Shown: in pieces, positions 26,401 to 29,400 of the stretch
Numbering within the stretch: position 1 is the first letter of the stretch
Layout: every line of letters begins with the position of its first letter
NCBI GenBank assembly: GCA_951406725.2
Contig: OX597833.1
Span: 12,090,001 to 12,154,000, forward strand
Source: Octopus vulgaris
Taxonomy: Eukaryota
Length of the DNA stretch: 64,000 nt
Direction: 5' to 3'
The notes under the pieces: model-generated
Seen by the model: only the letters and a program-made list of their open reading frames with translations
Told to the model about the DNA's origin: nothing
Database searches by the model: none
Position numbers and translations under genes: made by a program

Positions 26401-29400
26401 ATATATATTATATATATATATATATATATATATATATATATATATATATATATATATATATATATATATATATATATATATATATATATATATGTATATA
26501 TATATATATGTATATATATATGTGGATTAACTGTTGAACTGGACGGACGTCTATTTGTTTCTCTCCCGAGTCAGTAGCAAGCTACACAGCTTCAAAACTA
26601 ACTGACCTTAAATATATATATATTTGTAACCACGTGTTTGCCTACAAACCCGTAAGTACGTTTTCATTTAACTACAAATTGTTATATACACCTGTTTTTC
26701 TTTTAATATCCTCAAACAACCAAATAATCAAAAACTCACACCCTTAAGAGAGAACATTTATATATATATACACTTCTTTAACTCCCAAGAAAGAATATAT
26801 ATATTTTCAAAAATCAAAAGGAAAACAAACAAAAGAAAAACAAACATGACTAACTTGCAGGCCTGCAACAGACGAAATTGGTCTGATAACGAAATTGATG
26901 TTTTAATAAACACATGGCTCTCTCTTTCCCAAACAGAAAATCTAAATGTCTTGTGTTTGAATGAGATTGCCGAAAAAACATCACAAGTGGTCAACACACG
27001 ATCCGTCAAACAGATTCGTAGCAAGTTGAAACATATCGAAGTATCTTTCAAACTGATAAGAGGCCATTATGAAAAGCTTCTACATATTTTCACAGTTCAA
27101 GAACAACAACAGCTAGAAAATCAGCAGCCACAACAACAACAACAACAGAATGAGCCACTCCTGGTTCCCAACACAATGGCTGACCCTGACATCGGTCAGG
27201 CACAACAACAACAACAACAGCCACAGCAACAAGAACAACAACAGCCACTCCTCAACTCTAGCTTACTAGACGATTCACTAAATGCCAGTATCTTTTCACC
27301 GCTCTCACAGCAACCACCACAATTATCATCATCATCATCACCACCGCTGCCACCATCGTCTTCTATCACCAAAAATACCAACAGAAAACCAAATAAGAAA
27401 CCACTGCCCTCTTCCCCCACATCACCACCTCAATACTACTGCAGTAACAAAAACTTAAAGAAACATAGGAAGCAGAATGCGCCCCCCACGGCACAAACAA
27501 GAAATCCCCAAATATGCCGCTATTCACTGCGCCAGAGACTCTGCACAAATAGTGACTGCATCTTCACGCATCTACCCGGCACTAGACGCACTACTGGCCA
27601 AGGCCAAAGCACGCATCCCACAATAACATCAACACCACCAAATAGTAAATCGAAATTCAAAACACACACAACTCGGAGTCCCAAAATCTGCCGGTATTCC
27701 CAACGTGAGAGAACATGTCTACTGAGTGACTGTCCCTTCACTCATCTTCCAGGGACCCGACGCACAAACAGAAACGGGGCCTCAAGCCAACACACAAACC
27801 TGAATAACAATAAAAATAGAAACACACCATGCTGCAGTAATGCTGGTCCAGTCTTTTCAGGAAGACACAAAAACAACAACAACAAAAGTGGAAACTACAA
27901 CCCTATCCAACAGTGCAACCACACCTCCAGCCAAAAACTGCTCCCTAAGCAGGAAAATTCTTTTTTAGCCATGTTGAACATGGCAAAAGAGATACACAAA
28001 AACATTCTAGCCATCACTCAACACCATCCTATGCTATTACCCCAGTGCACCAATTCCCCACATTGCTGCCACTAACACACACAAAAAATCCAAGCCCCCT
28101 GCAACAGTCAAAACCAGCCACTACACTAACCTCCACATTCCTACTCAATGCACAAGGTGTCAGCCCTTCCATCAATGCACAAAAATGGAAGGTCCAATTC
28201 ATTGAAGACTGGGTTGGTAACCATTCACACCACATCCCTTTCTTCATTCTCACTGAGACCCACCTTGACAACTCCCACTTGGAAGCCGAAGTGAGAGTGA
28301 AGAATTTCACAACCATCCGCGCGGATCGTATCGGCAGGAGGAAGGGTGGAACTGCCATTTTCCTGCATGATTCATTTACGGCAGATGGAAATAGTATATT
28401 CTCCAACGGCTACTGTGAATCAGTCACCGTGCACAACAAAGCCAATGATCTGACAGTAATTGGGCTCTATAGGCCGCCCCAAACACCCATACTGTGCTTT
28501 AAAGAATGCCTCAACAGCATTAAGTGCTTTATTCAACAGTGCCATTCTAGCAACATACTCATGATGGGAGACTTCAATCTACCCTGTGTTGACTGGACTA
28601 CAAACTGTTTGAAACCAAGCACTCCCGCCTCAACCGCTGACAAAGAAGCAGCAGAGTCACTTTTCGACTTTACGAATGAGTTTTTCTTGTCCCAACTTGT
28701 CCTTGCACCAACAAGACATCAGAACATTTTGGACCTAGTGTTTAGTAACCACACTAACACTATACATAACGTTACAGTGGAAAAAACCCTTCTTTCAGAC
28801 CATGACATGGTTCTCTGTAACATGAAATTCCACCAGCCGAAAGCTAATCCTAGTGACCTTCCTCCAGCCCACCCATTTGACAACATGGATCTCCATAAAG
28901 CCAACTGGGATGCAATCAGGAACGAGCTATCAAATGTTGACTGGTCCTTTACACATACACACATCTCCACCAACCATAAAACATCTTGGCAGATCTTTGT
29001 AGACACCGTCACAGACATATGTGCAAAACACTCCCCACCAAGACCTGTGAACAAAAAGTGCAGAATCCCCCAAAACAGAAAAACCATTATCAGAAAAATA
29101 AAAAGAACAAACAAAAAAATTAACAAACTAAAGTACTGCCAACAGCAACACACACATTCGACGGCTATCGCACTGCTTGAATCCAAAAAATATAACCTCC
29201 AACAATGCATGAAGTCCCTCATCAATAACCAAAGATCAGCTGAGGAGAAGTGGGCCATTGAAAAAATCAAACTCAACCCCAAAGTGTTCTTTTCATTTGC
29301 GAGGAAACGCAGGGTCACTGTCTCCACTGTAGGCCCTCTAATTGACGAAACTGGCACTCTCCAAGATAATGCCAAATCCATGGCCGAGATACTGCAGAAA

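Follow-up and report, generated by a model that had tools for sequence, protein, structure and literature searches.

How does a LINE make the enzyme of its second open reading frame (ORF2) when that frame overlaps the first (ORF1) in the -1 register and has no AUG ahead of the endonuclease (EN)? The question is raised by an element that we call family A, found in the window, by which we mean the whole stretch of DNA analysed (64,000 nucleotides). The accessible part of a review ranks the translation of LINE ORF2 as an interesting and important question (PMC3894237). A preliminary description of the window had proposed that three of its LINE families make an ORF1-ORF2 fusion by -1 ribosomal frameshifting at a slippery heptamer.

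The ORF1/ORF2 junction in the window

The features of the family A element on which the question turns are the following.

About 26520 to 31170, + strand: full-length family A LINE, the start placed where other copies begin aligning and the 3' end read directly
26846 to 28075, + strand: ORF1, 409 aa, with its stop codon at 28073-28075
27946 to 27948, + strand: TAA that shuts the -1 frame, four codons 5' of the heptamer
27949 to 31080, + strand: ORF2 frame (-1), 1043 codons, with linker, APE endonuclease and reverse transcriptase (RT), from reading frames and Pfam
27952 to 27958, + strand: second, weaker in-register candidate, G_GAA_AAU, within the open -1 frame and not common to families B and C
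27961 to 27967, + strand: slippery heptamer U_UUU_UUA (TTTTTTA), the predicted shift site, in the ORF1 register with codons TCT TTT TTA (Ser-Phe-Leu)

The element is inserted in a (TA)n tract, and its 3' end reads directly as (TATCAAAG)3, without poly(A). ORF1 begins with a Myb/SANT-like N-terminus (26846-27250; PF13837, E 2.5e-5, below the cut-off), followed by a Q/S/P-rich linker, two CCCH-like motifs recognised by eye, and a C-terminal helix led by SFL; an Atlas search gave no usable match for it. The Myb/SANT-like start is absent from the LINE ORF1 types in the accessible part of PMC4120745. ORF2 has Pfam matches above the cut-off to PF14529, PF03372 and PF00078, and no protease domain was found in the element with Pfam. 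In the ORF2 frame, codon 66 encodes the conserved Asn in the first strand of EN, and codon 204 the first Met. The corresponding first ATG, at 28561, lies inside EN, after LNAQG and TETH and 485 nt beyond the ORF1 stop. The preliminary description had placed the heptamer, the TAA, the -1 frame and this ATG at the same positions, and each was re-derived exactly. Loose X XXY YYZ matches are plentiful within the window (294 + 293). A lone heptamer is thus common by chance, and the signal lies in its register, its position and its recurrence across lineages.

Two further families in the window carry a related site.

1232 to 1238, - strand: family B heptamer U_UUU_UUG (TTTTTTG), with a -1-frame TGA at 1250-1248
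3 to 1247, - strand: family B ORF2 frame (EN), which runs off the window; intact copies have 1039 aa
40976 to 40982, + strand: family C heptamer U_UUU_UUG (TTTTTTG), with a -1-frame TGA at 40964-40966

The heptamer and TGA positions, too, had been given before and were all recovered. The B frame has an in-frame ATG 49 nt ahead of the ORF1 stop. The ORF2 of the window's C copy is disrupted by frameshifts; U_UUU_UUG is retained in 11 of the 14 C copies that cover the site. About 20 C copies among those listed have the same 211-codon truncated ORF2 frame (window 40967-41602; L240-L251), which suggests that a defective sub-lineage was propagated in trans, or else that the copies have an error in common. 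The ORF1 of A had been called unalignable with that of B, and BLASTP between the two agrees (best E 1.7); their EN domains are 34% identical. B and C are 72% identical in EN and about 72-75% in DNA, and they share an 18-residue stretch of ORF1. They are sister families, so that, of the earlier claim of three LINE families, the heptamer stands in A, B and C, whereas the window contains two lineages and not three. A fourth family, D, has an EN about 59% identical to that of A and reads TCT TTT TTA as A does, the heptamer sitting 4 nt past the -1-frame stop in most site-covering copies. B, C and D all have an in-frame AUG ahead of EN, and their 3' ends are short repeats. A common 3' UTR core, GGTG..C...CATGGCC, occurs in all four families (window 31100-31146; 3' ends of L272-L281) and is likely an RT recognition signal. 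The 3' ends of A and D are nearly identical despite the 59% EN identity.

Elsewhere in the window, a second B-family copy, at 35834-39682, is 93-95% identical to L272 and is duplicated or rearranged internally. More 3' ends of B lie near 33700, 34430 and 58650, and a 3' fragment of A occupies 44224-45428. An animal haem peroxidase gene has exons at 50900-51451 and 55323-55685 (PF03098, E 5e-15 and 1e-8), and a Tc1/mariner-like transposase frame of 299 codons lies at 3335-4234 (DDE_3, E 1.4e-5, below the cut-off).

Copies of the junction in the genome

The genome was searched for copies over 2.8 Gb in 227 contigs. For positions 27700-28400 of A, 40/40 scored matches (from 926 candidates) are 100% identical, in a search that ranks by identity and so selects for it; the search with family B behaves in the same way. 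Many copies retain the full ORF2 frame of 1043 codons (A) or 1039 codons (B). In 4/4 public runs, from four studies, the main contig crosses the A junction with no gap, other letter or joint, and with T6A kept. These runs are assembled contigs from which rare forms drop out; they are guessed to be RNA, and this DNA may itself come from one of them. Family A, a young and abundant family with many intact copies, has this junction as its working state and not as a relic. The outcomes that the preliminary description had set against its proposal (synonymous non-slippery codons, ORF1 and ORF2 in one frame, an upstream ORF2 ATG) are none of them the family state, and the in-frame fused copies that occur in the assembly disagree between duplicates.

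Those fused copies come from deletions in the T run. Among A copies chosen by their EN sequence, deletions of 1-4 bases are present in 14/27 and in 10/13, on several sub-lineage backgrounds, and some of them put ORF1 and ORF2 in one frame. At most other six-base runs the A copies have deletions in 0-2 of 15-30, with 5/29 at 29652, and at the T run of B and C copies the counts are 3/26 and 2/14. Such deletions are what one would look for if the fusion were produced by polymerase slippage on the T run, either by RNA polymerase or by the element's RT, which would then leave genomic copies fused in frame, with no ribosomal shift; HIV RT is known to slip on U6A in vitro (abstracts of PMC5737442 and PMC5737552). 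Two pairs of duplicates speak against it. L139 and L140 (A) share a common 5' junction and three private changes, yet differ at the T run, and L109 and L110 (B), duplicates of one insertion, also differ there. As duplicates of a single insertion disagree, the deletions in both pairs postdate insertion and were not born with it. The main contigs of all four runs keep T6A. In the comparison with other LINEs given below, the enrichment is specific to one register, and the heptamer of many elements is G_GAA_AAC, U_UUA_AAC or C_CCU_UUA, without a long run. We therefore hold polymerase slippage to be very improbable as the source of the fusion.

The same disagreement between duplicates leaves unproven the idea of a deletion hot spot made by RT slippage at insertion, and for that reason we also dropped a lineage argument, according to which copies with the deletion have no descendants. 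The deletions are most likely assembly errors, that is, long-read error at a homopolymer in a hairpin. The public contigs show no T-run deletion but also hide a known 17/67 SNP, so they neither confirm nor exclude the deletions. Where young A copies seem to have deletion hot spots (window 27959-27966 and 29652-29657; L061-L154), assembly errors are probably the cause, and counts of frame breaks in young repeats from this assembly call for caution. Every A and B insertion examined lies in a (TA)n tract (window 26520, 31170; L080, L106, L109, L111). Truncation at the 5' end falls exactly at 27959 in one copy of A and within the hairpin loop in one of B, numbers too small for a test.

Splicing or RNA editing might instead link ORF1 to ORF2 or make an AUG. 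We found nothing in favour of either process. Two patterns scanned for a donor-like GT motif gave none in 27800-28075, the A ORF2 frame has no ATA codon ahead of EN that editing could act on, and no contig joint spans the junction in the four runs, with the proviso that contigs drop rare forms and that the runs are guessed to be RNA. Such a link is scarcely credible, even less so than slippage by a polymerase.

ORF1/ORF2 junctions in other LINEs

Metagenome contigs were scanned with an ORF2 alignment and with patterns from the RT region that take no account of the junction, and of 444 loci the best 80 were taken. Together with A and B they gave 82 rows, which were filtered by heptamer-blind rules that dropped 25 rows without an EN start, 11 with a broken ORF2 and 5 without ORF1. 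The 41 junctions kept (39 metagenome LINEs, A and B) have pairwise ORF2 identities of at most 59.6%. A scan of viral contigs gave 2 loci only, both without an EN start, and a word-index protein search gave 2 matches.

These 41 junctions, from the best 80 loci with A and B, are of three kinds: 32 in which ORF2 overlaps ORF1 in the -1 frame, 5 with ORF2 in the +1 frame, and 4 where a single in-frame stop separates the two ORFs. The -1 bias has P 6e-9 against one third (30/39 when A and B are excluded), a value that, like the others in this survey, overstates independence, the lineages being related. The preliminary description had suggested asking whether slippery codons are conserved at synonymous positions. 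Asked of the metagenome LINEs with A and B, the answer is yes: a strict X_XXY_YYZ in the ORF1 register is present in the overlap of 26/32 -1 junctions, versus 10.0 expected (P 2e-12, with the same overstatement). The expectation comes from synonymous resampling in which the ORF1 peptide, the element's codon usage and the open -1 frame are fixed and the -1 peptide is free. Leaving out A and B gives 25/30 versus 9.9. A relaxed heptamer is found in register in 29/32, versus 15.3 expected, and even this is absent from the remaining 3/32 -1 junctions. The other two registers of the same 32 overlaps have 2 and 4 strict heptamers, and equal lengths of ORF1 immediately upstream of the overlap have a heptamer in 0/32. 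The enrichment thus depends on register, which points to the ribosome rather than to a polymerase.

The overlaps range from 13 to 448 nt, and the heptamer has a consistent place within them. The -1 frame closes at a median of 7 codons 5' of it and stays open for a median of 72 codons 3' of it to the EN Asn (31 elements), and in overlaps of at least 100 nt the chosen heptamer is in the 5' half for 22/24. The ORF1s differ in type, and the heptamers occupy some five places in them that are not homologous, yet always in the same register and frame. Outside the clade of A we find A_AAA_AAC in K-N-L, G_GRA_AAC in E/G-N-Y/F and C_CCU_UUA in T-P-L contexts, and the esterase-type ORF1s have U_UUA_AAC or U_UUU_UUA at the very end (U_UUA_AAC ends ORF1 in L195, L203 and L209). 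A preference for AAC (21/24) reaches only P 0.06 versus the local background. In the A_AAA_AAC group (L169, L172, L178, L181, L182, L186, L202, L231) the heptamer is followed in every case by TTG or CTG, and in the G_GRA_AAC group (L165, L177, L193) T comes next, often with GTG GTA GG further 3'. These following bases are possible linear 3' stimulators.

In a quick tree the clade of A stands apart, as 16 rows with SH-aLRT 100. All seven of its lineages that were examined (A, B, D, L157, L159, L160 and L162, with L159 counted although its ORF2 breaks downstream) have the codons NNT TTT TTR, behind four different first residues: the peptide is Ser, Asn, Pro or His, then Phe-Leu. From codon usage, NNT TTT TTR has a chance of 0.013-0.12 per lineage, or about 1e-11 jointly if the lineages are independent. 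PHD matches are found in the ORF1 of L160, in this clade, and of L175 and L193, and a GDSL esterase in L185 and L209, some of these matches being below the cut-off. CR1-group LINEs end in short tandem repeats without poly(A), and A has both this kind of tail and an ORF2 with APE and RT. The surveyed elements are CR1-group-like, a label that for A stops short of a named clade.

No AUG lies ahead of the EN Asn in 14/32 -1 junctions (A included), and one is present in 18/32. This lack of an AUG ahead of EN in A and 13 others, the junction anatomy and its conservation across distant lineages are direct observations. ORF2 might instead be made by termination and reinitiation, or by leaky or internal initiation, as in human L1 and silkworm SART1, starting from a nearby AUG in B, C and D and from a near-cognate codon in A, with the heptamer a by-product of the conserved Phe-Leu start of a helix. 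The ingredients are there: in-frame GTG 28045, TTG 28063, CTG 28066 and CTG 28099 surround the ORF1 stop of A, the AUGs of B, C and D precede EN, every A-clade ORF1 has an amphipathic helix that opens with x-F-L, and precedent exists, in the accessible parts of the sources on L1 and SART1, in AUG-independent initiation for L1 and UAAUG for SART1. However, reinitiation predicts neither the -1 bias nor the fixation of synonymous slippery codons (26 versus 10.0 expected). Nor does it predict that the -1 frame is kept open 5' of the AUG, as it is in the 17 elements whose AUG falls between heptamer and EN, against 7.5 expected by chance, a weaker point in that the set was chosen for its open frame. 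The first AUG is found from -334 to +581 nt relative to the ORF1 stop, with no fixed stop-start geometry, and an AUG of the L1/SART1 type, overlapping or just past the ORF1 stop, is absent: the first AUG is at +485 nt in A and at -49 nt in B. On balance we regard reinitiation as unlikely.

The four elements with a single in-frame stop (L175, L194, L217 and L224 of the 41) have ORF1 and ORF2 in the same frame, interrupted by TGA or TAG then C. One of them reads UAG CAA UAU, close to the UAG_CAR_YYA motif given in the accessible part of PMC3542737. They are candidates for stop-codon readthrough in LINEs, and their sequences suggest that the fusion, and not the route to fusion, is what is kept.

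RNA structure, proposed mechanism and known systems

The accessible part of PMC3542737 describes the canonical eukaryotic -1 signal as X_XXY_YYZ in the zero frame, where Z is A, C or U, with a stem-loop or pseudoknot 5-9 nt 3'. In the heptamer itself A and D fit (U_UUU_UUA), whereas B and C fail, their Z being G. Two of the four features of the signal are present, the in-register heptamer and a downstream -1 ORF open from the heptamer (in A, 1043 codons from 27949). For a stimulator, family A offers three predicted elements.

27959 to 27992, + strand: predicted hairpin, -16 kcal/mol (z -3.2), whose 5' arm contains the heptamer
27972 to 28023, + strand: candidate stimulator, an alternative stem predicted 4 nt 3' of the heptamer, -10.8 kcal/mol (z -2.2)
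31117 to 31123, + strand: 3' UTR 7-mer complementary to 27968-27974, in A only and no general feature

The first two are predicted to be mutually exclusive, the hairpin being the stronger. Similar hairpins enclosing the heptamer are predicted in B and C and are absent from D; no stem is predicted 3' of the heptamer in B and C (z 0.2 and 0.9). Over 31 sites the downstream fold has a mean z of -0.61 (Wilcoxon P 0.05-0.09 versus controls). Consensus structures were sought in three sequence groups; none was found in two of them (9 and 8 sequences), and the third, of 5, has a weak 6-pair helix. The junction has no Rfam match at the gathering score. Across the 31 sites, the three groups and Rfam, a conserved local 3' stimulator was not found.

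Long-range pairing of the RNA after the heptamer with the 3' end was considered as a general feature and rejected. An early loose test, in which host flanks were part of the tails, gave 7/28 at P <=0.05. A stricter version is flat, with 3/30 helices at mid-P <=0.05 and a median of 0.51; by duplex energy the count is 5/30 (combined P 0.03). The pairing stands out in A alone (7 bp, mid-P 0.009), and D has the 3' UTR of A without the complement.

Taken together, the comparative data (32/41 junctions in the -1 frame, 26/32 with strict heptamers, 7/7 A-clade lineages with slippery codons) support the frameshifting first proposed from the window. We consider it quite probable that, in LINEs with a -1 ORF1/ORF2 overlap and an in-register heptamer, programmed -1 ribosomal frameshifting yields the ORF2 protein fused to that of ORF1. 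Most ribosomes on the ORF1 of A would reach its stop and yield the 409-aa protein. A small share would slip one base back on U_UUU_UUA, with tRNA-Phe and tRNA-Leu re-pairing on UUU UUU. The shifted ribosomes would read ...ENSF(L/F)SHVEHGK..., traverse a 60-codon linker and complete a predicted ORF1-EN-RT fusion of 1411 aa. The efficiency of slipping would presumably be low, because no 3' stimulator is common to the sites, and a low efficiency would suit the small amount of RT that a LINE particle needs. B and C appear weaker fits, given their UUG last codon, the lack of a downstream stem and their in-frame AUG.

We also lean, with less assurance, towards a wider reading, in which retrovirus-style recoding would be the default route to the enzyme for a whole LINE branch, the CR1 group with the clade of A, in many eukaryotes. 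In most cases -1 frameshifting would produce the fusion, at sites whose place in ORF1 has changed again and again, and sometimes stop readthrough would, with no classical 3' stimulator; the hairpin of A, B and C, by sequestering the slippery site, would serve as a switch. If frameshifting is right, a large LINE branch uses the gag-pol solution rather than the reinitiation of the worked cases, the real enzyme is an ORF1-EN-RT fusion, ORF2s annotated from the first Met are truncated or wrong, and constructs started there miss the natural protein. Dozens of natural -1 sites would then seem to work without strong 3' structure.

Among known systems, L1 and SART1 share with the elements here a bicistronic LINE RNA. 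Reviews, in their accessible parts, give reinitiation for the ORF2 of both (PMC5009743, PMC3894237, PMC2881922), with L1 ORF2 produced without its AUG (PMC5009743) and ORF2 output dependent on ORF1 translation (PMC2881922). Their ORF2 is a separate protein begun past the ORF1 stop, in contrast with the overlap of 13-448 nt, the slippery site and, in many elements, the lack of an AUG before EN described here.

The CR1-group LINEs covered by the accessible parts of PMC4120745 and PMC13343379 resemble the elements here in their APE-RT ORF2, in the PHD or esterase ORF1s of relatives, which with RRM/CTD are ORF1 types known from CR1/L2, and in the short tandem 3' tail; they differ in that the ORF1 of A, Myb/SANT-like and CCCH-like, is outside the types given in PMC4120745. 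The accessible main texts of both papers contain neither 'frameshift' nor 'overlap', and that of the second, a 2026 survey of the CR1 group, does not contain 'slippery' either. We found no report of slippery sites or frameshifting in CR1-group LINEs in the full-text literature, in which subscription journals are thinly covered. Papers of the 1990s on CR1-type elements of turtle, chicken and mosquito reportedly describe ORFs that overlap or lie close together, and frameshifting may already have been proposed there.

TRE5-A and TRE3-A of Dictyostelium belong to an L1-type clade, different from the elements here. They too are APE-type LINEs with a stated -1 frameshift: a figure legend in the accessible part of a review says that it is needed for ORF2 (PMC5911963). 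The host is different, that part of the review gives no heptamer survey, and the term 'frameshift' is absent from the accessible part of PMC3159450.

The closest likeness in layout is to retroviral gag-pol. The elements here are unlike it in being non-LTR, with APE and RT, in having no Pfam protease, and in having no conserved stem-loop or pseudoknot 5-9 nt 3' of the site. They are like it in having an RNA-binding-type ORF first, the enzyme ORF in the -1 frame, an in-register heptamer in the overlap, and a minority of elements with stop-readthrough-like variants. The heptamers are the same as well: U UUU UUA, the predicted shift site of A, is the HIV-1 gag-pol slippery site.
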